Source of the DNA: Minisyncoccota bacterium
GTDB lineage: Bacteria; Patescibacteriota; Minisyncoccia; UBA6257; GWB1-50-10
NCBI GenBank assembly: GCA_041917695.1
Contig: JAYRXE010000037.1
Span: 370,582-434,581, forward strand
DNA length: 64,000 nt
Direction: 5' to 3'
The stretch's first letter is position 1; each line of letters starts with the position of its first letter. Positions 12,615 through 30,647 of the stretch are shown here, piece after piece. The translations under genes and the position numbers were made by a program. The notes beneath the pieces are model-generated. The model saw nothing but the letters and a program-made list of their open reading frames with translations. It was not told the DNA's origin and did not search any database.

Positions 12615-12616
12615 AG

Positions 12617-13033: not shown

Positions 13034-13034
13034 A

Positions 13035-13782: not shown

Positions 13783-13806
13783 CCCGCCAATGGCGGGTTT
13801 ATTTTT
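13783..13806 (+). terminator. rho-independent terminator
   Basis: cccgcca-a-tggcggg followed by tttattttt. Confidence 0.7.
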
Positions 13807-13891
13807 GGCAATATTAATTTGCAATTTTTGACATACTTCTCCTTTTAATGCATGATACGCTTAGAATTATTAACCTATATAGGAGGCTTAT

Positions 13892-14062
13892 ATGCTTCTA
13901 CTCCAGTATTTTCTGTTATTCCTGCCGCAAGACTTAACTGAGGGAGACTTCATTTTTCTTGAAAAAGTCTGCGGGACCATGCTTGGCCTTTTTGTACTAT
14001 TTATTATTTTTATGGCGCTGGCCAGCCGCGGGGAAGATCCGCGAGATACCGATTGGGATTAG
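13892..14062 (+). CDS. small hydrophobic peptide (56 aa), hypothetical
   Basis: Perfect RBS aggaggcttat then ATG. Own translation: MLLLQYFLLFLPQDLTEGDFIFLEKVCGTMLGLFVLFIIFMALASRGEDPRDTDWD. A TTGACA element lies 60 bp upstream. Confidence 0.3.
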   Translation: MLLLQYFLLFLPQDLTEGDFIFLEKVCGTMLGLFVLFIIFMALASRGEDPRDTDWD

Positions 14063-14090
14063 TTTTCTTACATTAGGGCTTCGGCCCTAT

Positions 14091-14549
14091 TTATTTTTCC
14101 ATGAAAGCCTTCCAATCGATCTTCCAGCTCCCCCGCTGAACCATCTTGTCATTCGTCTCACTCGCAAACTTCGGGTAAATGTGGAGATGGAAATGCGCTA
14201 GCGAGGGCTTCGCCCTGCCGTCGTATCTCGATCGCCATGCGAAGAAAAACTGGTCGCCAAAACGCGATGAAGCGCTCACAATCCCCTTTGCCCGATAATG
14301 AGTTTCGATATGCTTTATTGCCAATTTAAGCTCGCTAAGCTCGGCAGCTCTCAATTCCGTGAATTCCGTTACATGGCGCTTACTCACCAATAGCGTGTGA
14401 TATTTCCGATACGGGAAGGCCGCAAAATACCATCCCCAATGTCTGAATTTTTTGATGAGGAGCGAATCCCTGTCACTGCAGAAAGCGCAGACCCCCTTGA
14501 GGCTTTTTAAATGCTTAGCGTATTCCTTCCGAGGTAAGGGATGTTTCAT
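14091..14549 (-). CDS. HIT family protein (histidine triad hydrolase/transferase)
   Basis: HFHLHIYP histidine-triad motif near the C-terminus and CAFC N-terminal zinc-like motif. Confidence 0.75.
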   Translation of the reverse strand: MKHPLPRKEYAKHLKSLKGVCAFCSDRDSLLIKKFRHWGWYFAAFPYRKYHTLLVSKRHVTEFTELRAAELSELKLAIKHIETHYRAKGIVSASSRFGDQFFFAWRSRYDGRAKPSLAHFHLHIYPKFASETNDKMVQRGSWKIDWKAFMEK

Positions 14550-14644
14550 GGAGCTCCAATTCTTCCATATTTAGATTCTATACTTTCCTCCGTGGCCATG
14601 AAATCCCCGCCCTTCGCATTGCCACGTTTTGCTAATATAAAATT

Positions 14645-15133
14645 ATGGAACGCAAGGCGGGCTTTTTCCGAAACTTCGTATTTGGGGTTGAAGATAGCTT
14701 AGTCTCTACCGTCGGCCTCCTTTCCGGCGTTGCCGCGGCGGGCACCAGCGCGTGGACAACGTTCACCACCGGCGTTATCCTCATCTTCGTCGAAGCATTC
14801 TCTATGGCGATCGGAAGCTATCTTTCCGAAAATTCCGCGCAAGAGTTTGTTGAGCATAGGCAGGAACCTCTCGGCCAATCAGTGCCTAATTCGCTCATCA
14901 TGTTCTTTTCGTATTTTATTTCGGGATTCGTCCCGCTTTTCCCGTACCTCTTTTTTGACGCTTCCCGCGCCCTGCCTATTTCAGTCGGCGCGTCGCTCAT
15001 TGCCTTGCTTGCCCTCGGTTTCGGAAGTGCAAGGCTTTCCAAGACAAGCGTTTGGAAGGGCGTGTTGCGCATGATGCTTCTTGGCGGAACCGCCATTGCC
15101 CTCGGCATCAGCGTAGGACTTATTTTAAAGTAA
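14645..15133 (+). CDS. VIT1/CCC1 family (DUF125) membrane protein
   Basis: FGVEDSLVSTVGLLSGVAAAG signature of the VIT1/CCC1 iron/manganese transporter family, followed by TM helices. Confidence 0.65.
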   Translation: MERKAGFFRNFVFGVEDSLVSTVGLLSGVAAAGTSAWTTFTTGVILIFVEAFSMAIGSYLSENSAQEFVEHRQEPLGQSVPNSLIMFFSYFISGFVPLFPYLFFDASRALPISVGASLIALLALGFGSARLSKTSVWKGVLRMMLLGGTAIALGISVGLILK

Positions 15134-15281
15134 GCTCCCACTGAGAGTCAGTTTCAAACTCTCCATCTCTCTAGAATTGGGCACAAATCATCTACTCAAT
15201 GGCTTGTTTGACGCATCAAAAAAATGCGCCTATGGTTTTAAATAGAATTTCTACAAATTTAACAACTTTTTGGAGGTGGAA

Positions 15282-15710
15282 ATGAAACACTCAACAAAAG
15301 AGCTTTTAGTTGCAATTGTTGCAGTTATTGCAGGTGGAATCGGATTATCACTCTTTGCTTTAAACTATCCCCGTCCCCTTGGTGTAGGCACCATTATCGC
15401 ATTTGTGATTTGCATCGCCGTGCTCGGATGGTGCATGTATAAAATGGAAAAATTAGTATATAGCGAAGGAGAGGTAAGGAAGGAAAATTCGAAAAAAGAC
15501 TCACAGGATGGAAGTGACAAAAAATTGCCTCAGCTTAGAAATTTCTTAAGGAAAGTTCAACAGGCATTCTGCAAACACAATTATGAATTAGCAGAACCAA
15601 TGGATTGGCCTGTATTTGAAGAAGGAACTTCCTATAATCTTATTAGGAAACACGCCTGCTCTCATTGCGGGCATGAGGCTTATCTCGGAACCGGCTGGAT
15701 ATTAGGATAA
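15282..15710 (+). CDS. hypothetical membrane protein with C-terminal CxxC...CxHC pattern
   Basis: RBS ggaggtgga then ATG 15282 (MKHSTKEL). Two TM helices, then a soluble tail with CKHN...CSHCGHE. Confidence 0.4.
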   Translation: MKHSTKELLVAIVAVIAGGIGLSLFALNYPRPLGVGTIIAFVICIAVLGWCMYKMEKLVYSEGEVRKENSKKDSQDGSDKKLPQLRNFLRKVQQAFCKHNYELAEPMDWPVFEEGTSYNLIRKHACSHCGHEAYLGTGWILG

Positions 15711-15799
15711 TTTTTCAAAAATCACCCCATGCAGGGTGATTTTTATTTGCCCACCTTTCCAATTGGAATAGAAATTCTAAGGCCGCTATAATTGAAACG

Positions 15800-16327
15800 A
15801 TGTATGGAAGACTCAGCGATATTTTGAGGAAGATATCGCCTTATTTGAAGAAGGAGGACAGGATAATAGATATCGGCTGCGGTAGCTGCGAAGTCTGTAA
15901 GCATCTGCAGAATGATGGATACGCCGTTACCCCCGTCGATGTCAAAAATAGGAGCTTTTTTCGAAATATAAAGCCGATCATCTATGACGGGAAGAAATTG
16001 CCATTTCCCGACAATTCCTTCGATGTATCGCTCCTCATAACGGTTTTGCACCACACTCAAGATCCCGTGGCGGTTTTAAGCGAGGCGAAACGCGTTTCGA
16101 AGCGCATTATCGTAATGGAAGATCTTTACCAAGGTAAGGCTCAAAAGTACCTGACCTTTGCAATGGACAGCATTCTTAACCTTGAGTTCTTTGGCCATCC
16201 GCATACGAATATGACCAAGGAGGAATGGGAGCATCTTTTCAAGGAATTGAAATTAACAAAGAAAAGTGAAAATATACACGATTTCTGGAAATTCTTTACG
16301 AGCGGCACTTTCTATCTTGTTAAGTAG
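15800..16327 (+). CDS. class I SAM-dependent methyltransferase
   Basis: IIDIGCGSCE (motif I), PFPDNSFDVSLL (post I/II), LSEAKRVSKRIIV (motif III). Confidence 0.75.
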   Translation: MYGRLSDILRKISPYLKKEDRIIDIGCGSCEVCKHLQNDGYAVTPVDVKNRSFFRNIKPIIYDGKKLPFPDNSFDVSLLITVLHHTQDPVAVLSEAKRVSKRIIVMEDLYQGKAQKYLTFAMDSILNLEFFGHPHTNMTKEEWEHLFKELKLTKKSENIHDFWKFFTSGTFYLVK

Positions 16328-16365
16328 ATGAATAAATAGGCAAGCCGGTGAGCTTGCCTATAAAA

Positions 16366-17583
16366 CTAGTTTTCCTGGGTCGCGGAAACCATTTCCCGCC
16401 TTTCTTTCTCGACACTTCTTTTATACGAATGGTAGCTCCATATACCGACAATGAGGGAGAGACCTCCCAGCATAATCAGCGCACTCAGCAAATCCGAGCG
16501 CTGCAAGAGGAACCCGAACCCTGCCATCCCAACTATCGCCACCAAGCTGGACGATGATGACTGCACCGAAAGGACGGTTGCACGGATATCGCTCTGAATA
16601 TGTCGGTTCACGTAGTCACCCACGAACGGGCGCATAAATCCGCGGCTTACGTTTTGTATCAGCACGAGGTACGCGAAAGGCCATATAGGCACAAGCCCCA
16701 TCAGAAGGATCGGCACGGCCACGCAGAGAATCAGGCCAAGCACGCTTCTCCGCTCCCCGATAAGGGCTTCTAGCTTGTAAGCATAGTGGCTGAAAAACCA
16801 CGCCACGATGTTTAACAGGAAGAAAATGACGCCATATTGGTAGATCGCGATGCCAACAAACTCAAAATACGGATTGTACGTAAAGAACCATAGCTTTGAG
16901 GTGGTGCCGATAAGGGCCGCGAATCCCAACATCCACCGCACCGCCCTAGAGCGAAATGCGAATGTGGCGCCCCGTTTCAAGGTTTCGAGCTGCCGCTGCA
17001 CGGAATAATGCTCAACCCGCGCCGGCTCTTTCCAGAAGAACGTAGCAACAAGCGGCACAAGGGTAAACGGCAGACTAAGGTACAGCGGAAGCCGGAGGCT
17101 GATATCTGCCAGGAAACCGGTCGCAAGCGAACAGAACGCAATAAGGAACATCCGCAGTCCGATAGCCTTCCCCTCTATCCTTTTGTATTCGTTTTCCCTC
17201 TTCGCTTCCTTCAGCGTATCGTAGAGAAACGCAGAATCTGCCCCCGACTGCATTGAGAAACCGACAGCCCAGAGAATATTGCCGATCCACGCTTCAAGCG
17301 GATTCGCCATCGTTGCAAAAAAGTAGATACTCCCCAAAAGGAAGACTCTCCCAATGCTGATTGTCTTCTTTCTTCCCAAAATGTCGGCTAATGCGCCCAT
17401 CGGTATTTCAAGGCACACCAGTACCCCAATCACCACCGATTCCATGAGGTAGATCTCAGCCAGCGACATAAAGGCCAGTTTTTGAAGAGATGTGATGAGA
17501 ATGGGGCCCCAAAAAAGCGGCTCGTTAAAAATCGCATACAGCTGGTACAGCAGGATATTTCGTTTGTATTCGGTGTCTTTCAT
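16366..17583 (-). CDS. MFS transporter
   Basis: 12 predicted TM helices and GRKKTISIGR between TM2 and TM3, an MFS motif-A-like loop. Confidence 0.8.
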   Translation of the reverse strand: MKDTEYKRNILLYQLYAIFNEPLFWGPILITSLQKLAFMSLAEIYLMESVVIGVLVCLEIPMGALADILGRKKTISIGRVFLLGSIYFFATMANPLEAWIGNILWAVGFSMQSGADSAFLYDTLKEAKRENEYKRIEGKAIGLRMFLIAFCSLATGFLADISLRLPLYLSLPFTLVPLVATFFWKEPARVEHYSVQRQLETLKRGATFAFRSRAVRWMLGFAALIGTTSKLWFFTYNPYFEFVGIAIYQYGVIFFLLNIVAWFFSHYAYKLEALIGERRSVLGLILCVAVPILLMGLVPIWPFAYLVLIQNVSRGFMRPFVGDYVNRHIQSDIRATVLSVQSSSSSLVAIVGMAGFGFLLQRSDLLSALIMLGGLSLIVGIWSYHSYKRSVEKERREMVSATQEN

Positions 17584-18997: not shown

Positions 18998-19457
18998 TCC
19001 CTTTCAAATTATTTTCAAAAATCTTGCAAAAACCGCCAGATTCATCCCTCGTCTCTCGGCGAATTTTCCACCCTCGTTTCCCGAGAAATTTTTCTATCAG
19101 CGGATTATCCGTGCATACTAAAACAATTTTCTCCCCTCTTTTCCTAAGATACTCCATCCGTTTTTCGTAAAACTCACGATAAATGCCTTGCTCGCGGTAT
19201 TCCGGGAGAACCACCGCATCCGCAAGCCACGGCAGGCCATTGTCTATCTCGTCAGGACTTGCCACACGAGTTATTGCCCCAAATCCTGCAAGCTTTTCAC
19301 CTTCAAAACACCCGATGATATATTCGGATTCTTTGAGTTCATCCCACGCGTTCACGGGGTACTCAAGTCCCCAAGAATGCTCATGGATGATGTCCGCACA
19401 CCGTTTTGCAAGCGGATTGGTCGTTTTTATTTTCCGATACTCAAGCCTCGTGTTCAT
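18987..19457 (-). CDS. GNAT family N-acetyltransferase
   Basis: ~156 aa with a GNAT motif A-like region. Overlaps the kinase gene by 11 nt, so an operon is likely. Confidence 0.7.
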   Translation of the reverse strand: MNTRLEYRKIKTTNPLAKRCADIIHEHSWGLEYPVNAWDELKESEYIIGCFEGEKLAGFGAITRVASPDEIDNGLPWLADAVVLPEYREQGIYREFYEKRMEYLRKRGEKIVLVCTDNPLIEKFLGKRGWKIRRETRDESGGFCKIFENNLKGIDD

Positions 19458-19496
19458 AAGATCTTTTTGACCCTGGGGTACATACGCAGCATATTT

Positions 19497-20195
19497 TTAC
19501 CCGTTGTGGTCTGCTGGCAAATCAATATCCTTAATTCTGTTCGCAACGTTCGTCTCATGAATAATCTCTACCCACATCACTTTCGGGGAAGGGAGCGTGA
19601 CAATTTCAAGTCCTGCCCCAAGGATCTTAGAGTGATTATACTGGAGAATAGTATAATCACGAGAAGCTATCATTGAAAGGAAATGGTTGTCTTTTCTAAG
19701 ATAGGCATATCGTTTACCGGCCTTTTCATCCAACTTTTCACCCTTTTCAAAGGTTAAAACACATTTGCGAAGATTGCCTTTCGCGTACCCCTGAACGATA
19801 TCTACATATTTTGAATTTAAAATATCATCGTTATCAATCCTAGATGTAATGAACCACTCATTGTCATATTTGTTTTCAGAGACAAAACTGGCGAAATCAA
19901 AAAATTCGTTATCATCAAAATATAAGTCAATAAACATGTACACCTCCTTCAATGTCCGGATTCTTTCTTTAAAGACTTCAGGGGTCTGCTTGTGGAAAAG
20001 TATTATCCATTGGAAATTCTGGGATGTCTGGCTCTGAAGCGAAGGAATCGTGTATTGCTCAAAAAGACGGAAGCGCTCCGATAAATAATCTGGATCCAAG
20101 ATTAAATCCATTGGATTGCGTTCTGGATCTCTCGGACTACAACCAAATTTTTTCCGTATATTAAATCTGGTTAATACAAAATGTTTATATTCCAT
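19497..20195 (-). CDS. putative glycosyltransferase (rhamnosyltransferase-like family)
   Basis: N-terminal HFVLTRFNIR and ITSRIDNDDIL resemble the Rhamno_transf/GT-A-like family. The assignment is tentative. Confidence 0.4.
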   Translation of the reverse strand: MEYKHFVLTRFNIRKKFGCSPRDPERNPMDLILDPDYLSERFRLFEQYTIPSLQSQTSQNFQWIILFHKQTPEVFKERIRTLKEVYMFIDLYFDDNEFFDFASFVSENKYDNEWFITSRIDNDDILNSKYVDIVQGYAKGNLRKCVLTFEKGEKLDEKAGKRYAYLRKDNHFLSMIASRDYTILQYNHSKILGAGLEIVTLPSPKVMWVEIIHETNVANRIKDIDLPADHNG

Positions 20196-20235
20196 GGTAA
20201 AAATGAAACTTGTTCGAATGCTGGGGTACCCTCTT

Positions 20236-20763
20236 TCATATGCGTGAATGGTTGGTCATATTTTGCCGCCGCAAAAGCTTTAAGGCCATTTTGTGAGAAT
20301 CATCTGAGTAGGTAGATTGAACGCATTCCTCGATAACATACGTGAAAAATCCCGCATCAAAGGCATCAAAGGCCGTAGCGAGCACGCAATCCTCAGTATC
20401 TAATCCTACGATATGCACCTCCCTTATTTTCTTACTTTTCAAAAAAGCGGTCAGCTTCTTATTCCCTTGGAAGGCCGACCTCGTATCCTTTTGAACCTTG
20501 AAGGACTTATAGGGCTTTAGAGCCGTGGCAATGGACTCCACGGTCTCTGTATACCTTCCTTTCGGGCAAATCCATTTCTGCTGTTTTTTCCACAGGGAAC
20601 CCTTTTCGGCGTGAAAATTCACCTCAACATACGCATCGTATTTTACCGAATCTAGAAGTTTTAAAATATTCTTAACGATATAACCATTCCCTCTATTCAA
20701 GAATGAATCTTGTACATCCACGACAATAAGAGCCTTTTTGCGAGAATTTTCGGAAAATTTCAT
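20236..20763 (-). CDS. isochorismatase-family cysteine hydrolase
   Basis: ALIVVDVQ (catalytic Asp), K.., VHIVGLDTEDCVLATAFDAFDAGF (catalytic Cys) form the D-K-C triad arrangement. Confidence 0.8.
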   Translation of the reverse strand: MKFSENSRKKALIVVDVQDSFLNRGNGYIVKNILKLLDSVKYDAYVEVNFHAEKGSLWKKQQKWICPKGRYTETVESIATALKPYKSFKVQKDTRSAFQGNKKLTAFLKSKKIREVHIVGLDTEDCVLATAFDAFDAGFFTYVIEECVQSTYSDDSHKMALKLLRRQNMTNHSRI

Positions 20764-20804
20764 GTTGGCTCTTAATTCTTCATTATCTTACGAGATTGAT
20801 ATGA

Positions 20805-21608
20805 TTATTTCCTATCATCATCAAATAATTCATAGAAGGCAACAACGCTGAAAGGGCCCACAAAGCCCACAAAGAATAACTCTTCCCAGGGTATAGGATT
20901 GAACCCGAAAAAATTGATGGGCGGAAGAAAATAAACCCCAGTAAATACCCATTGGTTGAGAAATGTTGCGGTAATTTCAAAGAAAAAAGTGATGGCGAAA
21001 AAGTACGCTACAAGAGATAATGCTCGACGAAGAAACTGCGGAAAATGCCACAGAAAAATTAACGTGGGAAGAGCGAAGAAAACAGTTCCAAGAATCAAAT
21101 AAGTGTATGGCCCCTCCCACACAAAAAGATGCTTCCCACCTGATGCAAGAATCAAGAAAAAGGCGCTTAATACGAATAATGCAATAGAAATGAAATACCA
21201 GAGGCGCTTATCCGCCAATTCACGCTTCCCTTTATCGAGCATGATTTCATAGCCGACAACGAGCGTGAAGACGCCGCTCGCCATCCAGAAAAAATCCTCG
21301 ATGGGAATAACTCCGAGAAACCTCGATGGAAAAAGGCTATACGGCACATACCATACGCCGCTTGTGGTACCGATATAATCGATGATAATGGCAAAAGGTA
21401 ATGAAATGATGAACGTAAAGATTGCTCCTTTCGCTACTTGCCACAGCCGTCCAAAACGGAGGATTAAATAAATTCCTGGGAGGCTATAAAACAGGAAAAT
21501 AGAAAGAATATACGGGGCGTGAAATACAAGGGACACTAAGGAGCTTAAGAAAGGTAAAAGCGCCAACACGAAAAAATCGTATACGCTTAGACGCTTCAAA
21601 ATCTCCAT
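20805..21608 (-). CDS. integral membrane protein, hypothetical
   Basis: 7-8 TM helices, aromatic-rich; no confident family. Confidence 0.45.
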   Translation of the reverse strand: MEILKRLSVYDFFVLALLPFLSSLVSLVFHAPYILSIFLFYSLPGIYLILRFGRLWQVAKGAIFTFIISLPFAIIIDYIGTTSGVWYVPYSLFPSRFLGVIPIEDFFWMASGVFTLVVGYEIMLDKGKRELADKRLWYFISIALFVLSAFFLILASGGKHLFVWEGPYTYLILGTVFFALPTLIFLWHFPQFLRRALSLVAYFFAITFFFEITATFLNQWVFTGVYFLPPINFFGFNPIPWEELFFVGFVGPFSVVAFYELFDDDRK

Positions 21609-21680
21609 GCCTTTATTCTATGAGTAAAAGAAAATGGAGGAAAGCGACCCTCCTCGGGCGCGAGAACTCAGCTCGACTTG

Positions 21681-21695
21681 GCTGGGGAGCAGGGA
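21681..21695. repeat. 15-bp duplicate of tRNA-Gln 3' end (gctggggagcaggga)
   Basis: Identical to 21846-21860, which is the 3' acceptor/T-stem of the tRNA. It is followed by an 82-bp unrelated insert and then ttcgaatcccc, a diverged T-loop-like segment. Confidence 0.7.
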
Positions 21696-21846
21696 AATCT
21701 TACGTCGCTTCGCTCCCTGAAACCCAGCGGTTTCAGGGCATCCGCTACGGGAAAACTCCCGTTTCCCCGACCCCCTTCCCGTTCGAATCCCCTCTATTCC
21801 ACATCAAAGCAGAAACACCGGCATAAAGCTGGCGTTTCTGTTTTTG

Positions 21847-21917
21847 CTGGGGAGCAGGGATTCGAACCCCAATACTCGCCTCCAAAGGGCGATGTCCTAC
21901 CATTAGACGACTCCCCA
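21847..21917 (-). tRNA. tRNA-Gln (anticodon TTG)
   Basis: Reverse complement folds as a cloverleaf: acceptor TGGGGAG/CTCCCCA (7 bp), D-arm GTCT-AATGGTA-GGAC, anticodon arm TCGCC-CTTTGGA-GGCGA (U33, anticodon UUG), T-arm with TTCGAAT loop, discriminator G. CCA is not encoded. Confidence 0.7.
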
Positions 21918-21987
21918 ATTAATCTAAATGTAATAAACTTTTTTCTCTAAAACTGGGGGAAAATTAGACCTGCCTGCGCAGGCAAGC

Positions 21988-22000
21988 GACTCCCCAATTA
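21988..22000. repeat. 13-bp duplicate of tRNA-Gln 5' end (gactccccaatta) within a GC hairpin
   Basis: Identical to 21909-21921. Embedded in ggggg-aaaattagacctgcctgcgcaggcaagcgac-tcccc, a minihelix-like hairpin. Confidence 0.65.
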
Positions 22001-22033
22001 CGTCTGTAATTGTACCCTCCGCTTCCGGTTTCG

Positions 22034-22062
22034 CAAATAAAAAGCCCCACTATGGGGGCTTT
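22034..22062 (-). terminator. rho-independent terminator (minus strand) downstream of peptide ORF
   Basis: Minus strand: aaagcccc-catagt-ggggcttt followed by ttatttgcg. Also hairpin plus T-run on the + strand. Confidence 0.7.
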
Positions 22063-22082
22063 GATTTTTACCTGTATGACGG

Positions 22083-22223
22083 TTACTTCCTCTTGTAACA
22101 GTTGTCGCACGGCTGTGAGAAACAGCTGTCACCCTCTTCGCACTGAGCGCCAACCATCGGATTAACCTTCAGGTCGCTCTTTGCGTTCGAGTCTTTCACT
22201 ATGGAGAGAATCTCGGGTTTCAA
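22083..22223 (-). CDS. Cys-rich precursor-like peptide (46 aa) downstream of radical-SAM/SPASM gene
   Basis: aaaggaggtga RBS 8 nt before TTG. Own translation: (M)KPEILSIVKDSNAKSDLKVNPMVGAQCEEGDSCFSQPCDNCYKRK, with 4 Cys in the C-terminal 15 residues. It lies 33 nt after the maturase stop. Below the ORF-track cutoff. Confidence 0.5.
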   Translation of the reverse strand: MKPEILSIVKDSNAKSDLKVNPMVGAQCEEGDSCFSQPCDNCYKRK

Positions 22224-22256
22224 TGAAATCACCTCCTTTCTTTTCCGTATTGGTGA

Positions 22257-23558
22257 TTAAAGCGCTGATTCAACAATACCCCTTTGGGATAAAATCCGCA
22301 AAAAGGCCTCTGCGTCTTCCCGCTCTATGGGAAATGCCTGTGCCATCGTATCGGTGCTGAATGTTTTCTCATCCATCATGTATTGCACCAGACGCATCGC
22401 ATCATTATTCAGAAGCGCGGATCCGCCAGAGACGAATACCACTCCCCCAAATTCTTCATCGCGCACGCGAACGCCGTTCGCAAGCTTGAATTCGCCAGGC
22501 GGCGTATCAGCATTTCTCGCTATCTTCTGCGGCAAGACGATGTCATAGGGACCACTCATGAAAGGGTCATTTCCATGGATATCTCCCAGATATTTCGCTT
22601 CCATTCTGCACCCGGCGCTGCACATCTCTATGTAATCACATGCATCGCAAGCGGGCGGAATATATACGCCCGCGCGCCAGTCTTCCATACTCTCCCATGC
22701 CTTTAAGAGACCATCCTGAAACACGTTGCCGTATACCATATCGGCGCGGGAACAGGGACGGACATCCCCATTAGAACCGATGGTGCAGCTCGTAACGCCG
22801 GCACCGCAGTTCCTGCGTGCAAAGACATGATACTTGCCCACATCGCCAATCAAGCAGAGCGGATAGCATTCCAACACATCAACGGCAATTCCCAATTCTT
22901 TCTGAATGTCCGTAAGCATCGCCATGCTTTTGCGCACCTCTTCTACGGTTAGAATCTCCTTATCAAAGTTGCGGCTATTCAGCGCCGGCGAAGCTTTCGT
23001 TGCGCAAAATCCATCAATGCCGTGCTTTACAAGCACTTCTGCCGTTTCCCTAAGATACGAGAAATTGCGCTTGCTGAGCACCATATTCGTACTCACCAAA
23101 AAACCAGCATGGACAGCAATGTCGATTCCTCTCATGGTACGCGCCCATGCGCCCTTTCGCCCCGCAATTTCATCATGCACCGCTTCGTTTCCGCATAAGA
23201 CAGAAACAAGCATTTTCCTCAATCCTGCATTCCATAAGGCCTGCGCGATCGGTTCGGTAAGGAGCGCCACATTCGAGTTGAGGCCTACTTCGATTCCCGC
23301 CTTATCCAATTCAGCGATGGCAGGAGGAAGCATAGACCAGTAAATAAGGGGTTCGCCGCCGGTAATGGTAACCGATGAAACCTGGAGCGAAATAAGATCG
23401 CGTACGATTTGCATCAGCTCGTCTTCCGTAAGGCGCGAGAGGACTTTCGGCCCGCTCTTTTCCCGCCAGTGGTTATAGCAATGGAAACAATCCATATTGC
23501 AGGCTTCGGTGATTTCCACCTGGACCGACAAGGGGCCCTTTAACTTCCGGTACTTCAT
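22257..23558 (-). CDS. radical SAM / SPASM-domain peptide-modifying enzyme
   Basis: EITEACNMDCFHCYN is the CxxxCxxC radical-SAM cluster motif. GGEPL SAM-binding segment. C-terminal CGAGVTSC...PACDACDYIEMCSAGC is the SPASM auxiliary-cluster pattern. Confidence 0.85.
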   Translation of the reverse strand: MKYRKLKGPLSVQVEITEACNMDCFHCYNHWREKSGPKVLSRLTEDELMQIVRDLISLQVSSVTITGGEPLIYWSMLPPAIAELDKAGIEVGLNSNVALLTEPIAQALWNAGLRKMLVSVLCGNEAVHDEIAGRKGAWARTMRGIDIAVHAGFLVSTNMVLSKRNFSYLRETAEVLVKHGIDGFCATKASPALNSRNFDKEILTVEEVRKSMAMLTDIQKELGIAVDVLECYPLCLIGDVGKYHVFARRNCGAGVTSCTIGSNGDVRPCSRADMVYGNVFQDGLLKAWESMEDWRAGVYIPPACDACDYIEMCSAGCRMEAKYLGDIHGNDPFMSGPYDIVLPQKIARNADTPPGEFKLANGVRVRDEEFGGVVFVSGGSALLNNDAMRLVQYMMDEKTFSTDTMAQAFPIEREDAEAFLRILSQRGIVESAL

Positions 23559-23673
23559 AAAAACCTCCGTATTAAATTAGTAGTTTACTGCCCATACCAT
23601 ACAAATATTTCAGAATCCCGTCAATCATCCCCTTCCCAAATAAAAATAGCAGATCCGTATCGGCATCTGCTAT

Positions 23674-26316
23674 TTATTGTTTTTCATATATCCCTTCGTT
23701 TATCCACCATTCATTTATGTCTTTGTACGCGATAAGCCGCGGATACTCCTCCACAAAATCGGGCGGCATTTTAAAACGCACCCGTTCCGTGAACTGCATC
23801 TCGTCCAGCCATTTGAGGGTCTTTTGCTTCGCAAATTTTCCCCCCGCATCTACGTCAAAGCCAATGCATACGTTTTCACGAACGCTCAATGCATGCTGGA
23901 GGGCAAGATAGTTAAACGTGCCTCCAAATGCTCCTGTGTCCGTGTGTTCAAGCTGAATCATCGTTAGGGCGTCTATAACCGCTTCCATAAGGTTAAAGTC
24001 CTTATAGCGAGGTCCTGTAGCCAATGCATCAGCATTCCACATGCCTTGCGGCACGCCGCTTAAGTGAACTAAGGTCTTGCGGTGCCGCATTTCCTTAGGA
24101 CAGTTTTTCCGCACATCACGCCCGTAAAAGCTCGTGATCCTTCCCCCGCTAAATCCGAGAGGGAAAACCAACTTGTTTCGCAAGACGAGATACGGCAAAC
24201 CATCTTTGGTAGCCACATCGCTCAAAGACTTCCCACGCCGTTTTAGAAGCGGGAAAAGCCCTTGGGTTTCACGCAAACTCCCATTGAAATTCACCAAACC
24301 GTAATGCACCAATTCATCGAACTCAAAAAGATCCAATAATGTTTCAATCGCATCATTGCTGCAGAATCCTGCTCCGTATGCGCGCGCCAGTTCTGGATCA
24401 AGCCGCCGTTCGTTTTCGAGATATTCCTTTCCCGGACTATCCTTGAAGAAAACTTGGAAGACTTGTTGCATCAGCGTCATCGCTTTCACATGAAAAGCCG
24501 GGATTTTTTCCAAGCTTTCAAGGGAATTGATGCGTTGCCTTCGCAAAACATCTATGCGCACCTCAGGGGGCATGGATTCATATGCAAAGGGCATCCACGT
24601 ATCGCACACATAGCACCGAGCATAGCCACGCCTCATGAAAAGCATCATGGAGGGGTTTTTATCCTCATGCCACGGCAGGACGCACTGGATGAAACCGCCG
24701 CGCTCCATACTGAAATGGCGTGTCCGTATATCCCCTTCTTCCAAGGCATGGAAGAACGCATCGAGATGGAAACGGTACGGCGAGTGCCGTCCGCTTGCCG
24801 TTTCGACCCGTACTTTCTCAACGATTTTTGCTTCATCAAGAAAGATCCGCTGGGACTTGATAACTTCCGCTATCTCATCATGCGGATGCAACGAGGTTGA
24901 TTGGACATCAATCAGCGTTTCATTAACACAGAGGGAACCATTCTGGCCGTTCTGCTTCCCATTTTTCCCATTCTTCCCTTTTTTGAGATGGATGAGTTCC
25001 TGGATGGCATTGCTGATGGCATTTCCCCGATCGCGAATCAAGGCTTTGGTCTGACTGTAGCCGTAGCGGCTTCCAATCGTCTCCATAAATACCTCGTGCT
25101 GTTCAGGGCCATCGACGTGAATGCGGTATTCAACCGGGGCAATACTGGGGAAAAAATACACCAGTTTCGCATCAGTGAATTTCACGTTTCCGTTCCAGAT
25201 GTCTTTCTGCTTATGCATGAGCGCATAATCCAGGTTTGCGAGAGCGATGTACTTCTTGAGCTGCACCTTATGCTCCGCAATAGGCTCTCCATTGATTTCA
25301 GTCGGCAGGATCACATGACGCGCATGCAAGCCATCACCCGTTGCAAATTTGAATTCATAGAATTCAACGTCAACGCGGGCTCCATGAAAAATCCTTTCCA
25401 GTTCGGAAAGAACCTGATTCAAGGAGTGAAACGTCATCTTTTGGAGGCTATTTACCTGGAGACGCTGTTTTTCCGTAGGAGTTTTACCCCCTATGGCAGT
25501 CACTAAAATCAAATCCATACGCCATCCTCCCAACCCATAGTGGTATGAAAGAATGGGTATCTCCCTCAGACCGCCATGGAGGCCGATCTTTTGGACGTAT
25601 GAAATGATCGTCGCAAGCGTCATCACCGTCAGGGTGAGATAGTACTGGAAATCAGAATGGTGTTGCTTCCGCTCCAGAAGGGCGCGGCCCGATTCGCCAA
25701 TAAGCGGCATGAGAAGCTTAAAGAGTGCACGGAATTTATTCCTATCCAGTTTCAGATAGTTTCTTTCCCAGTTCTTCCTTCCCAGCTGGCGAGCGAGAAA
25801 CTTCCATTTCTTTTTCACCTGTCGTGCAAAATCACGGGTAATACGGGGAATAGAGACAAAGCCTGATTCGAAAAGTGGCTGAGGAGCCGGAAATAGCGAT
25901 AGCTCCTCACACGTTTTTTGCTTATCTCCAACCTGACCGGTGAGTATCCTCTGGGCAGCAGCGTGTAAAAACACCCCGAACCCTCGAATATACTCCTCGT
26001 TATTCCCTGATTCTTCTTCAAACTGCCTGCGCAATGAAGCAAGTGAACGAGTATATCGGCCATCTTTCATATCAACCGACGTGATTCTTTGCTTTTCCGC
26101 GGGAGGGTGCGCTTTATGAATCTCATAGAGCTTCCCTACCGCTTCTTCGAGGCTTCGAGCAATCCGGCACTGGACCAAGATTCGCGCGAAACCCATCACA
26201 TCCGCTGGTGCGCGTTCGATCCATACCTTGAAGGCATGGTCGTCCTTATAGCGCTCAGTAAGCGCTAGAAGATCACCATAGGGAGTGAGCGTTGCATTGT
26301 TGAATAATGAGCTCAT
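23674..26316 (-). CDS. 880-aa fusion: unknown ~540-aa N-terminal region + DnaG-type primase core (CHC2 zinc finger + TOPRIM), no C-terminal helicase-binding domain
   Basis: CVLPWHEDKNPSMMLFMRRGYARCYVCDTW is a CHC2 primase zinc finger. LMEAVIDAL (TOPRIM Glu) and CIGFDVDAGGKFA (TOPRIM DxD) lie ~260 aa downstream, the same spacing as DnaG. Low-complexity linker KGKNGKNGKQNGQNG. The N-terminal 540 aa has no motif I can assign. Confidence 0.7.
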   Translation of the reverse strand: MSSLFNNATLTPYGDLLALTERYKDDHAFKVWIERAPADVMGFARILVQCRIARSLEEAVGKLYEIHKAHPPAEKQRITSVDMKDGRYTRSLASLRRQFEEESGNNEEYIRGFGVFLHAAAQRILTGQVGDKQKTCEELSLFPAPQPLFESGFVSIPRITRDFARQVKKKWKFLARQLGRKNWERNYLKLDRNKFRALFKLLMPLIGESGRALLERKQHHSDFQYYLTLTVMTLATIISYVQKIGLHGGLREIPILSYHYGLGGWRMDLILVTAIGGKTPTEKQRLQVNSLQKMTFHSLNQVLSELERIFHGARVDVEFYEFKFATGDGLHARHVILPTEINGEPIAEHKVQLKKYIALANLDYALMHKQKDIWNGNVKFTDAKLVYFFPSIAPVEYRIHVDGPEQHEVFMETIGSRYGYSQTKALIRDRGNAISNAIQELIHLKKGKNGKNGKQNGQNGSLCVNETLIDVQSTSLHPHDEIAEVIKSQRIFLDEAKIVEKVRVETASGRHSPYRFHLDAFFHALEEGDIRTRHFSMERGGFIQCVLPWHEDKNPSMMLFMRRGYARCYVCDTWMPFAYESMPPEVRIDVLRRQRINSLESLEKIPAFHVKAMTLMQQVFQVFFKDSPGKEYLENERRLDPELARAYGAGFCSNDAIETLLDLFEFDELVHYGLVNFNGSLRETQGLFPLLKRRGKSLSDVATKDGLPYLVLRNKLVFPLGFSGGRITSFYGRDVRKNCPKEMRHRKTLVHLSGVPQGMWNADALATGPRYKDFNLMEAVIDALTMIQLEHTDTGAFGGTFNYLALQHALSVRENVCIGFDVDAGGKFAKQKTLKWLDEMQFTERVRFKMPPDFVEEYPRLIAYKDINEWWINEGIYEKQ

Positions 26317-26487
26317 TCTTTTTCCTTTCAGATATATGGAATTTTTTGCTTGGGCACTATGCCCCAGCTGCTACAGATTTTTTATCACGTAGCTGGAGAG
26401 GGGTCAATTTGAAAAAATGCGTTTTTCGTGTCGTGAACTTGATATAATAAAAGGGAGGAAAGGTCGAAAAACTGACCGATTAAACAC

Positions 26488-26700
26488 ATGAAGCTCCACA
26501 CGATCGCCTTCGTTCTCCTTGTTATCGGAGGCTTGAACTGGCTTCTTCTTGCGCTTACGGGATGGGAGGTCGGGATGCTCTTTGGCGGCATGACTGCCAT
26601 GGTTTCCCGCATCATCTACATCCTTGTCGGCCTCTCTGCTATCTACGAGGTCGCGATGCACAAGAAGATCTGTCGCGAATGCGCGAAAAGCGCAATGTAA
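26488..26700 (+). CDS. DUF378 family small membrane protein
   Basis: VIGGLNWLLLALTGWEV...FGG... is a two-TM DUF378-like signature. A gggagg RBS region lies upstream. Confidence 0.65.
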   Translation: MKLHTIAFVLLVIGGLNWLLLALTGWEVGMLFGGMTAMVSRIIYILVGLSAIYEVAMHKKICRECAKSAM

Positions 26701-26721
26701 GACGGACTCACGTCTTCACCA

Positions 26722-26746
26722 AAATCCCGCCCACGCGGGATTTTTA
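26722..26746 (+). terminator. rho-independent terminator
   Basis: aaaatcccgcc-cac-gcgggattttt. Confidence 0.7.
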
Positions 26747-26822
26747 ATTGACAAAGCAGCTTTGAAGTCCTACGGTAGGCATAGCTTAAAAACATAATTT
26801 TAAATTTAAAAAAGGAGCCTAT

Positions 26823-27665
26823 ATGCTTTCTGCTGAAGCAATTGCAAACGGAACCAAATGCATCAATGAATATATCGCCAAAAAACTCTCAGACTGGAAA
26901 GTAAAGCGCTATATCTTGGGAATCCATTGCAGCATTGTCGTGGCGTACCGCCTCGTTGATGCAAAGAATCACATCTTCAGGGGAATGATCGTAAACCACC
27001 AAAATCTTGATGGGAAAGTATTTTATGAACAGGAATTCACATCCTCTCATGAGAAATACGACCAAAACTGGGAAAATTTTTGGACGGATGCGGTTGAATT
27101 CTATCTTTTCGAAGAACAGGGCAAGATCCTGATACTTGAGGCTAAGCGCGAGCGCGAGAGGCCTAAATTCGTCAGTTTCGAAATGACCCCTGAATTATCT
27201 GTAAGCGGCATTTCCCTCTTTCCCGATAAATTGCCCATTGGAAATACCATAGGAGAGATCCATGACCCCGTCACGAGGCTCATACGCAGCAATTCCGACA
27301 GATATCTCGGCATCCACCTCACGAGAAACACCTTTTGCGTACTGGATATTGATACATGGAAACTGATCACCTCCCTCATTACCGAACCCGATGAAATCCC
27401 TATGGTTAATGATTTTCAGCTTTTCTTCGGAAAAAACGAGAAGCTCGCCGTAGTGGTAGTGAATGTCCAGCATGAAATGGCGGCGCATTGCCGCCAAAGG
27501 CTCGATATTTCATACAAGGGCGGATTCCTGAACCACAGTTACCTGGGGAATTCGGGAATCAAGTCATACCAGGGCAGACTCGATGGGGATAAATTCACCC
27601 TCACGGTCGAAACAGCGAGAGCGGGGACGGCAGTAATGCATTACGATCTTACCGAGAAAGATTAA
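26823..27665 (+). CDS. hypothetical protein
   Basis: RBS aaaaaggagcc then ATG. No recognisable family. A TTGACA element at 26748-26753 lies upstream. Confidence 0.45.
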   Translation: MLSAEAIANGTKCINEYIAKKLSDWKVKRYILGIHCSIVVAYRLVDAKNHIFRGMIVNHQNLDGKVFYEQEFTSSHEKYDQNWENFWTDAVEFYLFEEQGKILILEAKRERERPKFVSFEMTPELSVSGISLFPDKLPIGNTIGEIHDPVTRLIRSNSDRYLGIHLTRNTFCVLDIDTWKLITSLITEPDEIPMVNDFQLFFGKNEKLAVVVVNVQHEMAAHCRQRLDISYKGGFLNHSYLGNSGIKSYQGRLDGDKFTLTVETARAGTAVMHYDLTEKD

Positions 27666-27739
27666 TCCAAAAGGGGCGCATGCCCCTTTTTATTTTCCTT
27701 CGGCAACCGGTTTTTTTAGGCTATACTGACTGCACAGAG

Positions 27740-28879
27740 ATGCTTCGTTCCCTCTTCAGGAAAATCCGGAAAAGCCGCTTCGCCTACGAGCCGCTCATCG
27801 AAGTGACTATCTTTGCCGACCGGATACTCCACAATCTCCATGCGTTTCGGGAGAAATACGGCATCGCTGTCGCTCCCGTCTTGAAAAGCAACGCCTACGG
27901 CCACGGCTTGAAGGAAGTGGGCGCCATTCTAAAAGACGAGCCGCTCCCCTTTCTCTGCGTCGATTCGTACCATGAAGCGCTGTCCCTCCGGAACGAAAAC
28001 GTCGCAACGCCCATACTTATCCTCGCCTATACGTCACTCAAAAATATTCTCGCTTCGAAACTACCTCACGTTTCTTTCGCAATTATAAGCCTTGAGGAAC
28101 TTACCCTCCTTTCGTCCGAACTCCAGAAAACACGGAGCTTCCATTTGGAAATAGATACCGGCATGCATCGCCATGGCATTCGCGCAAGCGAGCTTCACAC
28201 GGCACGGGACCTTCTTTTGAAAAATCCCCATATCCGCCTTGAAGGCATTTATTCCCATTTTGCCGATGCGGGCAATCCGGATGCCGTGACGACCCATGAG
28301 CAGATACGTGCCTGGCATGAAGCGAAAAAACGCTTCACTGCCGACCTCTTTCCCCATCTTCGCTATTATCATCTTGCGGCGACCGCCGGAAGCTTCTATT
28401 CGAAAGAAATCGAGGCTAATGTCATGCGCCTCGGGCTTGGTTTATATGGCGGAAACGCCCACCAGAACGAGGATTTAAAGCTTCTCCCCGCACTCCGGCT
28501 TGAGACGGTCATCTCGTCGCTTTCTGCCGTGCATGCCGGCGAACGAATCGGCTATGGCGGAACCTACGAAGCTCCTGAGACTAAACAGATTGCCACCATT
28601 CCCATGGGGTATAACGAGGGAATCGATCGGCGGCTTTCGAATAAAGGCATCGTTACCGTGCGGGGAATTCCCTGCCCTATCCTCGGACGGGTTAGCATGA
28701 ATATTTCGACGATAGACGTTTCGGGAGTGCCCCAGCCCCGTCTGGGCGAGCGCGTCGTCGTTATTTCCGAAAATGCGTCAGATCCAAACTCGGCAGAGTA
28801 CATTGCCCATGCCTCGAACGTAATTCCCTACGAAACACTCGTGCATCTTCCCGCTTCCCTTCGCCGTACCGTCCGTTAA
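27740..28879 (+). CDS. alr: alanine racemase
   Basis: APVLKSNAYGHG (PLP-Lys motif), TGMHRHG, SMNISTIDVS. Start moved to ATG 27740 (MLRSLF). Confidence 0.85.
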   Translation: MLRSLFRKIRKSRFAYEPLIEVTIFADRILHNLHAFREKYGIAVAPVLKSNAYGHGLKEVGAILKDEPLPFLCVDSYHEALSLRNENVATPILILAYTSLKNILASKLPHVSFAIISLEELTLLSSELQKTRSFHLEIDTGMHRHGIRASELHTARDLLLKNPHIRLEGIYSHFADAGNPDAVTTHEQIRAWHEAKKRFTADLFPHLRYYHLAATAGSFYSKEIEANVMRLGLGLYGGNAHQNEDLKLLPALRLETVISSLSAVHAGERIGYGGTYEAPETKQIATIPMGYNEGIDRRLSNKGIVTVRGIPCPILGRVSMNISTIDVSGVPQPRLGERVVVISENASDPNSAEYIAHASNVIPYETLVHLPASLRRTVR

Positions 28880-29640
28880 TCGCGAGTAATGACCCGGGGC
28901 ATTACCACTTTCTGCTCCCCTGCCACGCCGGGAGCCACCTGATATTTGGGAAAATAGAACATGACCGCCTGATCGGTAAAGGTGAAATTCTCAAAATTCT
29001 CAATAGTGGGCTCAGTGCCAGACTCGATCATATCAGTCGGAGCGCCCCCTTCGAAATCGGCGGTCAATTTCGAAATAAGCACCGTACGCGCGTATTTCGA
29101 TATCTTTTGGAGATATCCATCCCCTTCTTCGGGGAACAAATCGGCAAGGGCGATCGGCTTACCCTTCCCAAAATCGTAATTGAAGGTTTTTATCTCTTGG
29201 CGCGTGTTTGCACCGCCTTCAAACGCCTCAAGCCGCAGGATAAAGCTTGCAGAATCCTCGTCGAGCTTTTCGGGCGACCAGGCAATCGAAAAAATGAAGG
29301 GCACGTCGGGAAATTCCTTCTTTGCCTCCCCTTCCGGCGCCGTAGCATTCCGTGCCTGCCAATTCTCCTCCGCGGTTTTTTTGAAATCGGCAATGCGGCC
29401 TGTCACATAGCTTTGGATCTCGCTATTCCACGCGGGGTCCGCCGAATCGAACTGGGGATATTCAGCGCGCAAATCATACAAGCGAGTATTCTCTTTCACC
29501 GAGACGATGCGCATCGGCAGCCCTTCGCGTTTCACCGCTTCCTTCATGCCCTCATCCGATTTGAAATAAGAGGATGAAAACGTGCCAAGGACGAATGCGG
29601 CAACGGCGGCGCCGATGATGATAAGCGGAGTTTTGTTCAT
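28876..29640 (-). CDS. DUF3298/DUF4163 (RsiV-like) domain protein with N-terminal signal anchor
   Basis: MNKTPLIIIGAAVAAFVLG signal anchor. The body resembles the RsiV/PdaC-type DUF4163-DUF3298 pair. Tentative. Confidence 0.5.
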   Translation of the reverse strand: MNKTPLIIIGAAVAAFVLGTFSSSYFKSDEGMKEAVKREGLPMRIVSVKENTRLYDLRAEYPQFDSADPAWNSEIQSYVTGRIADFKKTAEENWQARNATAPEGEAKKEFPDVPFIFSIAWSPEKLDEDSASFILRLEAFEGGANTRQEIKTFNYDFGKGKPIALADLFPEEGDGYLQKISKYARTVLISKLTADFEGGAPTDMIESGTEPTIENFENFTFTDQAVMFYFPKYQVAPGVAGEQKVVMPRVITRD

Positions 29641-29687
29641 ACACTCATTATACCCCTGGGCGGAGCACGGCGCATCGCGTATCATTA

Positions 29688-30647
29688 ATGCATATGGAAC
29701 TTTTCGGGCATTTCGTCGCCGGACATATCGCTCTCACCGCCATTTGGCTTTCAGCGGGTGCCTTGATCCGCGCCGTCAAAAACCTCGCCGCCACCTTCCA
29801 TAAATCGAGCTTTGTCGTATCGTTTCTTGTCTTGGGAACACTTACCTCATTAAGCGAGATCTCGGTCGCCCTTAATTCAACCGCCCTTGAAGTGCCTCAA
29901 GTCTCTGCAGGCAATCTCGTCGGCGCCTCATTTGTCCTGCTTCTTTTTGTTGTTCCGCTCCTTGCCGCGCTCGGAAACGGCATCCGCCTCAAAAAAACCT
30001 TTTCGCGGGGGAATGTGATTCTCGCCCTCCTTACCATCGCGCTCCCCGCCCTCTTCGTGATGGATGGCTCAGTGTCATGGGGTGAAGGAATTGCGGCGAT
30101 CTTCGCCTACGGGGCTTTTTTGGTTTCCATGCTCCGCGAGCAACCGGAAAAGCCAGCCCACATCCCCCGGCGGCGCGGGGCGCTTGTTTTTGACATCCTC
30201 AAAGTCATTATCGGAGCAGTCGTCATCTTCATCGCTGGCCGCATGCTCGTCTCGGAGGTTATCTACTTCGGCGGCATCCTGCATGTGCCGAATTCGCTCA
30301 TCGCGCTTATCGTCCTTTCCATCGGCACAAACATCCCTGAACTTACCATCGCTGCTCGCGCCGTCGTCTCGAAGGAAACTGATATTGCCTTCGGCGATTA
30401 TATCGGTTCGGCTGCGGTAAATACGCTTATCTTCGGTTTCTTGGGGCTCGCAAACCATGGCTTTCTCATTGAATCATCAGTTTTCACGGGTACGGCCATT
30501 CTCACCGTCTGCGGATTCGGCCTTCTCTACGTCTTCGCGAGCTCCAAGGAGACCATCTCCCGCCGCGAGGGTATGATCCTCCTTCTTTTCTATGCGGCAT
30601 TCATCATTTTCCAAACAGCGAATATTGTGACCCTCTCAAGTCGCTGA
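29688..30647 (+). CDS. Ca2+/Na+ antiporter (CaCA family)
   Basis: Two alpha-repeat signatures, GTLTSLSEISVA and GTNIPELTIA (GTSxPEL-like), and 10 TM helices. Confidence 0.8.
   Translation: MHMELFGHFVAGHIALTAIWLSAGALIRAVKNLAATFHKSSFVVSFLVLGTLTSLSEISVALNSTALEVPQVSAGNLVGASFVLLLFVVPLLAALGNGIRLKKTFSRGNVILALLTIALPALFVMDGSVSWGEGIAAIFAYGAFLVSMLREQPEKPAHIPRRRGALVFDILKVIIGAVVIFIAGRMLVSEVIYFGGILHVPNSLIALIVLSIGTNIPELTIAARAVVSKETDIAFGDYIGSAAVNTLIFGFLGLANHGFLIESSVFTGTAILTVCGFGLLYVFASSKETISRREGMILLLFYAAFIIFQTANIVTLSSR

Follow-up and report, generated by a model that had tools for sequence, protein, structure and literature searches.

We analysed a 64-kb stretch of DNA from a Minisyncoccota bacterium (contig JAYRXE010000037.1), here called the window, within which all positions are counted; other loci used for comparison carry L-numbers. 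Its subject is a tRNA-Gln(UUG) gene on the minus strand, the only tRNA that ARAGORN called in the 64 kb, and the partial copies of the two ends of this gene that lie on either side of it. The original prediction had placed a tRNA-Gln(TTG) here between duplicated fragments of its own ends and had read these as likely remnants of past integration events at the tRNA, or as tRNA-derived minihelices. The gene itself is confirmed, with 21847-21917 scoring 59 bits against the Rfam tRNA model RF00005. A search of 21000-22600 against Rfam at E values up to 10 matched this tRNA alone. A transfer-messenger RNA or permuted tRNA was ruled out (ARAGORN negative, acceptor stem not Ala-type), as was a plus-strand tRNA fragment at 21781-21801, which has no T-stem. 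The features of the locus are collected in Table 1.

Table 1. Positions of features at the tRNA-Gln locus of the window, followed by tail units at other loci with their offsets.
Locus	Feature	Position	Strand	Basis
Window	intact tRNA-Gln(UUG)	21846..21917	-	ARAGORN; Rfam RF00005, 59 bits
Window	head copy, TAAT + tRNA positions 1-10 (TAATTGGGGAGTCG)	21987..22000	-	exact direct repeat of 21908-21921
Window	18-nt GC-rich palindrome CTTGCCTGCGCAGGCAGG, after tRNA position 10 of the head copy	21969..21986	-	
Window	TCTAAT, tRNA positions 11-16, head copy resuming past the palindrome	21963..21968	-	sequence; alignment
Window	41-nt AT-rich remainder, where homologous cassettes have a GIY-YIG open reading frame	21922..21962	-	
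Window	79-bp indel, 65-bp segment + one 14-bp repeat, absent from L144	21922..22000	.	
Window	promoter-like TTGCGA-16-TACAAT	22009..22036	-	consensus match only
Window	bidirectional terminator-like hairpin after the radical SAM gene	22041..22062	.	
Window	terminator-like hairpin directly after the tRNA, start of the tail unit	21806..21844	-	inverted repeat
Window	diverged copy of variable loop, T-stem 5' strand and T-loop (GAATAGAGGGGATTCGAA) with GAYTCGAA	21782..21800	-	
Window	~85-nt hairpin-rich insertion in the pseudo T-loop	21696..21781	-	sequence; fold
Window	tail copy, tRNA positions 60-73 + C (TCCCTGCTCCCCAGC), then CA, giving CCA at 21679-21681	21678..21695	-	
Window	hairpin + T-run just upstream of the start (21608) of the 267-aa membrane protein gene	21636..21655	-	
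L105 Gln	tail, 9 nt exact, 11/12	+135		
L132 Gln	tail, 19 nt	+173		
L132 Val	tail, 11/12	+195		
L121 Gln(CUG)	T-arm with insertion after C56	+56		
L005 Leu(UAG)	tandem array of three 142-bp units, the tRNA's last 16 nt closing each	+129, +271, +413		

Copies of both ends of the tRNA-Gln gene

The 15-mer GCTGGGGAGCAGGGA occurs twice in total, at the 3' end of the gene (21846-21860) and, as had been predicted, at 21681-21695. Both occurrences are exact, and allowing one mismatch lengthens the repeat to 18 nt (21678-21695 vs 21843-21860). Shuffled sequence yields 0.09 matches to this 15-mer even at two mismatches, which places the copy beyond the shuffle expectation. Read along the minus strand, the copy downstream is TCCCTGCTCCCCAG-CCA, and the prediction that the copy and not the gene encodes CCA also held, the end of the gene reading ...CCCCAGCAAAAAC followed by CAAAAAC. 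The 5' repeat, CGACTCCCCAATTA, had been described as 13 nt long. It comprises 14 nt, at 21908-21921 and 21987-22000, and on the minus strand corresponds to TAAT followed by tRNA positions 1-10. By our own estimate, the chance of one exact match of at least 14 nt between the 72-nt gene and a 650-bp spacer is ~3e-4; a pair of such matches is not chance. The 3' pair encloses 150 bp and the 5' pair 65 bp, and along the minus strand a 5' stub comes first, then the intact gene and then a 3' third.

The accessory genes nearby are not bordered by either of these pairs. The segment at 13-21.6 kb, for which the repeats had been considered as island borders, lies outside both pairs. No third copy of the 3' repeat was found anywhere in the 64 kb with two mismatches allowed, and none is present at the far end of 13-21.6 kb.

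The upstream copy had also been placed inside a GC hairpin. There is such an element, an 18-nt palindrome present in a single copy in the window, and the 14-nt copy abuts it rather than lying within it. Past the palindrome the copy continues with TCTAAT (21963-21968), so that this partial gene end adjoins the intact gene in the same orientation. A strain from another sample, L144, is 98% identical to the window over 16.9 kb and differs at this point. Its positions 1-41 equal window positions 21881-21921 and its positions 28-16919 equal 21987-38889, so that L144 runs from inside the tRNA directly into CGTCTGTAATTG..., the sequence right of the outer 5' repeat. The deficit relative to the window is exactly 79 bp and ends at the 14-bp repeats, making the 5' pair an indel boundary between close strains. 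The promoter-like site immediately precedes the tRNA in the L144 allele, and in the window it precedes the head copy.

On the other side of the gene is a tail unit of ~165 bp (21678-21845), comprising the terminator hairpin, a pseudo T-arm with its ~85-nt T-loop insertion, and the tail copy. It begins after the tRNA 3' end and finishes with a copy of the last 15-20 nt, which is how units of the E. coli tyrT type are recognised. The diverged T-loop-like piece noted earlier at 21781-21793 is present, ~85 nt from the tail copy. It is readable directly, GAATAGAGGGGATTCGAA matching the tRNA's GAGTATTGGGG-TTCGAA; in inverted orientation it reproduces 11 nt of the T-arm exactly. Within the insertion, GGGGGTCGGGGAAA (21762-21775) can pair with the tail at 13 of 14 positions, and the motif GCGAAGCGA is also found there. 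The 3' arm of the hairpin at 21636-21655 can pair with 21704-21716 in the tail unit as well. Unlike the 5' pair, the 3' copy is retained among the relatives compared. It is identical in strains L084 and L003, and the unit occurs in all three conspecific strains sampled. Positions 21600-21749 are invariant in the three strains, and six single-nucleotide polymorphisms of L084 cluster in 21750-21830. A 68-aa open reading frame (ORF) on the plus strand (21620-21826), called in public assemblies, overlaps the tail unit on the opposite strand. It has no Pfam match, and five of the six L084 polymorphisms fall at its first or second codon positions. We rejected it as a real gene; it is probably spurious.

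Cassettes and tail units at other tRNA genes

For comparison, JGI metagenomes were scanned with a tRNA core of D-arm and anticodon arm, giving 55 loci from diverse lineages of the Candidate Phyla Radiation (CPR) with differing acceptor stems. In a short-word BLAST search the 65-bp upstream segment matched L114/L127 over 22 of 22 nt of the palindrome region (28 nt at 96%, E = 6e-6). L114 reads TGCCGGGTCG-[CCTGCCTGCGCAGGCAGG]-TCTAATGGTAGGAC, which corresponds to positions 1-25 of tRNA-Gln, split by the same palindrome at the junction of G10 and T11. This head copy is followed by an 81-aa ORF, 19 nt and an intact tRNA-Gln. The layout of L105 is similar, with a longer palindrome loop and an 80-aa ORF, and L130 has head and palindrome without an ORF. 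In the alignment, four loci (the window, L114, L105 and L130) thus have the palindrome at the same point of a partial tRNA-Gln copy, between G10 and T11. Two further loci have a head and an ORF without a palindrome: in L099 the head covers positions 1-56, and in L121 a head of positions 1-26 precedes the ORF and an intact tRNA-Gln(CUG).

The ORFs of L114, L105 and L099 consist of the GIY-YIG catalytic domain (PF01541, E 1e-14 to 1e-16). A hidden Markov model (HMM) of our own, built from these three, gave nine matches in 2 Mb of fetched loci, all beside tRNA-Gln; the L121 ORF, one of the nine, was matched by this model only (E 6e-29). The model has no match in the window, where 41 nt without an ORF remain between head copy and gene. 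From the shared layout we conclude that 21922-22000 appears to be an ORF-less relic of the GIY-YIG cassette type, at most a relic and not a working member. Elsewhere in the window (7608-9056, plus strand), precomputed Pfam annotation (L153) gives a 482-aa protein an RNase_T-type exonuclease domain, a UvrC middle domain and a faint GIY-YIG match; our model does not match this protein, which has no relation to the small ORFs linked to tRNA genes.

Across five sequences, the 9-bp helix made by the palindrome arms is 93% paired; two of its pairs are compensatory, and a single sequence supplies both. Members of the palindrome family (CCYGCCYGC...GCRGGCRGG) are dispersed at non-tRNA sites, in the manner of repetitive extragenic palindromic elements (L105 at 5447, L114 at 447 and 8651, L120 at 3263, L130 at 14541). 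The GC palindrome is a dispersed element and not a private mark of the cassettes.

The tRNA alleles at L099 bear on how such cassettes are built. The head (TGCGGGG, T-arm CAAGG) differs in allele from the inner tRNA (TGCGGGA, CTAGG), and the inner tRNA is of the type found in the L121 cassette, as expected if the cassette brought the inner gene and pushed the native end aside as the head. The L099 block (3049-3540) has a truncated tRNA-Gln with two T-loop hairpins, a 78-aa GIY-YIG ORF and the intact tRNA-Gln of the other allele; a 14-nt direct repeat, CAAGGTTCTGCGCC, flanks ORF and tRNA. L121 shows the complete head/ORF/tRNA/tail architecture at its tRNA-Gln(CUG) (6540-6925, minus strand), and a separate tRNA-Gln(UUG) 1.3 kb away is without modules. 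The full order in L105 and L121 is head, ORF, intact tRNA, and then a tail copy or a tail with a T-loop insertion. The tRNA of L105 has identical counterparts in L096, L122 and L138, all three without head, ORF and tail. Head and tail modules are accessory.

Two partial arrangements were seen at other tRNA genes. In L105, a 12-nt head copy of tRNA-Leu(CAG) (7237-7427) carries the palindrome in its D-stem, in inverted orientation, and no ORF is present. The tRNA-Glu of L126 (1180-1400) has a 14-nt head copy 75 nt upstream; an ORF downstream of it starts ...HYFVYVLRRLKDK, which resembles a GIY-YIG start by eye and is not matched by the HMM.

Tail units also recur. The window, L105, L132 (Gln) and L005 share the order tRNA, terminator-like hairpin, GAYTCGAA, hairpin-rich filler and tail, where GAYTCGAA represents either a T-loop lengthened by one A or a piece of the T-arm in inverted orientation, and the filler often contains GCGAAGCGA. 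The window has a single unit, L005 three in tandem. In L005, a Saccharibacteria metagenome-assembled genome (MAG), the three units (19208-19716) are perfect, and each has an inverted T-arm copy. The tail of L121 reads ATGGTTC-[two 15-nt hairpins]-GAATCCTAGTCCCGCAGC, a 30-nt insertion after C56, and L099 has the same two-hairpin T-loop insertion at the same place. The tail unit of the window, as judged from its pseudo T-arm, ~85-nt insertion and positions 60-73, fits this pattern of T-loop insertion. CCA is absent from the tails of L105, L132, L005 and L121. Because no other tail encodes it, the CCA of the window is probably a matter of chance, two bases after the shared C. When copies were counted with at most one mismatch in 11-12 nt within 500 nt of the gene, a head and/or a tail was found at 11 of 89 distinct CPR tRNA contexts, against ~0.5 expected; the non-CPR sample, nine contexts, is too small to compare. 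Head and tail occur together at three loci, namely the window, L105 and L121.

We therefore favour, with confidence somewhat above even, the reading that the window contains one functional tRNA-Gln with the decayed remains of two small insertions of kinds that recur at tRNA genes of CPR/Patescibacteria. The palindrome that the head shares with GIY-YIG cassettes points to the relic of a nuclease cassette and not to an integrase attL/attR pair. In such a history, a nuclease gene would have entered the tRNA gene, or sat beside it, with a replacement tRNA copy or 5' part. The replacement copy would have kept the tRNA functional, and the old native 5' end would have been displaced. The ORF would have decayed later in the lineage of the window, with 41 nt left. 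L144 may have lost the 79 bp through recombination between the 14-bp repeats, or may have kept an uninvaded allele. The tail could be the product of the same kind of event, or of a partial tandem duplication as in the distal repeats of E. coli tyrT.

Several points weigh against this reading. The window retains no trace of a nuclease ORF, and its status as a relic is read from the architecture of head and palindrome alone. Since the palindrome family also occurs at non-tRNA sites, its presence at the head copy could be due to an independent insertion. The comparison comprises five to seven loci, all distant (the nearest non-conspecific one at ~56% Alr identity), and the direction of the 79-bp indel is not polarisable. 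The small GIY-YIG proteins are catalytic domain only, their homing role is putative, and the intact inner tRNA would still carry any target site that is borne by the tRNA. For the tail, MAFFT could not align units between lineages beyond the short motifs GAYTCGAA and GCGAAGCGA, and the three strains sampled show no presence/absence polymorphism.

Neighbourhood and strain variation

The tRNA sits in variable DNA (13-28 kb) that is not bounded by either repeat pair. On one side are a radical SAM/SPASM gene (22257-23558) and the gene for an 880-aa Toprim-like protein; on the other are genes for the 267-aa membrane protein, an isochorismatase, a glycosyltransferase, a GNAT protein and an APH protein. 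Lower GC had been noted in the segment facing the tRNA 3' end. GC is indeed low there (0.40-0.50), and it is so across 13-28 kb on both sides of the tRNA. In agreement with the original prediction, no integrase, recombinase or transposase was detected by Pfam searches of all ORFs in 10.6-27.7 kb or in precomputed Pfam annotation to 33.5 kb. We also extended the contig past the start of the window and found no further tRNA there.

A scan of a genome collection gave, as the best genome match to the alanine racemase at 27680-28879, a Candidatus Saccharibacteria MAG (L004) at 56% identity, with eight further genes syntenic to the right of alr. Together with the radical SAM homologues described below, this indicates that the window derives from a CPR organism, probably a relative of Saccharibacteria. 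The distance between tRNA-Gln and alr is 49 bp in L004; the window has 5.7 kb of genes there that L004 lacks, and the 3' side of the tRNA also differs between the two. The intervening genes, for the radical SAM/SPASM protein, the 880-aa protein (whose sole match is C-terminal, Toprim-like), a DUF378 protein and a 280-aa ORF (22257-27665), are absent from this closest species. L004 was useful for synteny and too distant for polarising indels. No tRNA-Gln lies near the Alr homologues of L146-L151, which are 55-57% identical. Two other genes were tried as anchors. The radical SAM gene failed, its homologues being all from Patescibacteria and scattered, with the nearest non-conspecific ones ~53% identical. 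A 72%-identical homologue of the 267-aa gene (L086) stands in another context, without tRNA or leader.

Strains of the same species vary as well, and the region at 13-28 kb is variable both between lineages and between strains. L084 (JGI 3300045395, 98-99% identical) lacks the 1.25 kb at 19534-20785, which comprises the isochorismatase gene and nearly the whole of a rhamnosyltransferase-like gene. L085 (JGI 3300045394) matches the window down to 22175, a point 82 bp past the stop codon of the radical SAM gene, and continues in unrelated sequence, so that a further breakpoint between strains (22127-22175) lies beside the tRNA. Breaks at the tRNA or close to it occur in three independent assemblies, and those of L084 and L144 fall inside the gene.

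Alternative origins, related systems and implications

The repeats could instead be integrase att scars, as the original prediction had it. Tyrosine-recombinase elements would have entered the 3' and 5' ends of the tRNA and would since have been mostly deleted, leaving attL and attR separated by a few dozen bases in a remnant like a cis-mobilizable element (CIME). CIMEs are integrase-less derivatives of tRNA-targeted integrative elements. The block from T-loop to 3' end is the usual place of tRNA att cores, and it is here that the 3' repeat has its 15-18-nt identity. The locus further resembles tRNA-targeted elements and CIMEs in having a direct repeat from the T-loop onward and a tRNA as hotspot beside variable, lower-GC DNA (13-28 kb). 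At other loci, L088 and L140 (99.6% identical), and likewise L090 and L134, diverge exactly at the tRNA-Gln 3' end, and a 568-aa ORF of L092, by eye resembling a large serine recombinase, ends 3 nt from a tRNA-Gln 3' end. L134 shares the upstream flank of L092 and is without this ORF.

We nevertheless consider this origin unlikely. Direct repeats of a tRNA 3' part are present as in tRNA-integrated islands, but they enclose just 150 bp, and the second pair, at the 5' end and thus also unlike CIMEs, just 65 bp. There is no integrase within ~10 kb on either side, the accessory genes are left unbounded, and no third repeat bounds 13-21.6 kb. Small units of similar size recur at four other loci, which argues against random deletion remnants, and the head copy shares the palindrome/GIY-YIG architecture, which is unrelated to integrases. 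When phage and viral sequences were searched, using the region or the 3' end of the tRNA as query, only unrelated tRNA-Gln genes and no attP-like site came up. What survives of the earlier reading is a footprint of rearrangement or mobile DNA, the 5' pair bounding a polymorphism between strains that are 98% identical; an integrase attL/attR pair is not supported in its details and keeps some weight as an alternative.

A second alternative, improbable in our assessment, dispenses with mobile elements. The gene would have been duplicated in tandem by unequal crossing-over or slippage, and the outer copies would have decayed to a 5' stub and a 3' third. The minus-strand order of stub, gene and 3' third is what such a history would leave. 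A diverged variable-loop/T-arm segment stands at the start of the downstream unit, 142-bp units are repeated three times in L005, and the 79-bp loss of L144 requires just recombination between 14-bp repeats. Tandem duplication with decay is also the proposed origin of the 178-bp repeats of E. coli tyrT, and in E. coli (NC_000913) three 178-bp units follow tyrV, each carrying the tRNA 3' end. The tyrT/tyrV (rttR/tpr) repeats begin at the tRNA 3' end and close with a copy of about its last 19 nt, and the units of L005 and of the window (142 and 165 bp) are of this kind. Unlike the E. coli repeats, the CPR units have a pseudo T-arm with a T-loop insertion, and the two share no sequence similarity; the E. 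coli locus has no annotated nuclease gene, and no 5' copy was seen there. In the window a terminator-like hairpin stands between the tRNA and the rest of the tail unit. Duplication leaves unexplained why the same palindrome occupies the same tRNA position in four lineages, why GIY-YIG ORFs lie between stub and gene in L114, L105, L099 and L121, and why the stub and inner tRNA of L099 differ in allele. Moreover, an exact tail of 15-18 nt beside a diverged pseudo T-arm implies unequal ages.

A functional RNA, that is, a CCA-ended tRNA-like minihelix or leader that is processed, charged or regulates the 267-aa membrane protein gene, is very improbable: the tail's pairing with GGGGGTCGGGGAAA leaves an AGCCA overhang, the unit lies in the 5' region of that gene and 21600-21749 is invariant, but the strains (98-99% identical) are too close for invariance to mean constraint, the comparable units elsewhere lack CCA, which weakens the minihelix proposal of the original prediction, the fold z-score is only -2.0 with no common structure when the tail units of three loci were folded, no Rfam family matches, and the L086 homologue of the gene has neither leader nor upstream tRNA.

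Returning to the nuclease-cassette reading, the loci together suggest a broader proposal, which we put forward tentatively and rate as somewhat less than probable. Miniature GIY-YIG cassettes of a family not yet described may exist in CPR bacteria, homing into the genes of tRNAs (Gln UUG and CUG, with ORF-less relics at Leu and Glu) and carrying a replacement tRNA or tRNA end. The displaced heads and tails would be disabled by hairpins after G10 and in the T-loop, with palindrome and T-loop as handles for the nuclease. The window would be a decayed copy and L144 an emptied site.

Among the closest known systems is SegB of phage T4, a free-standing GIY-YIG homing endonuclease in a tRNA gene cluster, whose recognition site includes the conserved T-loop motif and which spreads together with neighbouring tRNA genes by co-conversion (PMC2330249). 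Similarly, tRNA-Gln is the immediate neighbour of the CPR GIY-YIG ORFs, and it is in the T-loop that the pseudo-tails are interrupted. SegB is full-size, with a DNA-binding part, whereas the CPR ORFs, whose cleavage activity is putative, have ~80 aa and the catalytic domain only. The T4 region also differs from the CPR loci in having no partial tRNA-end copies and no palindrome, and in the window, unlike at the SegB locus, the ORF is gone.

The duplicated gene ends have a parallel in the mobile endonuclease ORFs (mORFs) of fungal mitochondria, which carry a duplicated gene end in Allomyces atp6 and in Glomus atp6/atp9/cox2/nad3 (PMC3630166). An mORF inserts into an essential gene and brings a replacement end, and the native end stays adjacent as a pseudo-fragment (PMC3630166). 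Those are protein genes and 3' ends; here the host gene is a bacterial tRNA, with a 5' copy upstream and a 3' copy downstream, and the L099 cassette appears to bring a whole tRNA. Within CPR, rRNA genes contain short (<200 bp) non-intron insertions at stem-loops, and GIY-YIG ORFs occur sparsely in the non-intron insertions (PMC11270868). Those insertions are inside a functional gene, and the text of that paper is without tRNA; here the tRNA is uninterrupted and the insertions are in partial copies. Literature searches on GIY-YIG with tRNA in CPR/Patescibacteria, and on COG2827 with tRNA, returned nothing on such cassettes, and the wider GIY-YIG/tRNA cassette family may be undescribed. Judged from the sequences of a handful of loci, it looks like a variant of known endonuclease-cassette biology.

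For the window, the consequence is a point of annotation: the fragments are scars and not island borders. More broadly, end copies accompany about one in eight of the sampled CPR tRNA contexts, and a tiny GIY-YIG gene often separates copy and tRNA. If these are homing cassettes with their own tRNA, they would provide a route for horizontal tRNA replacement in minimal genomes with single-copy tRNAs. They would then be a bacterial counterpart of the mitochondrial mobile endonuclease ORFs and of T4 SegB, and in CPR metagenome bins they would cause assemblies to break and tRNA pseudogenes to be mis-called.

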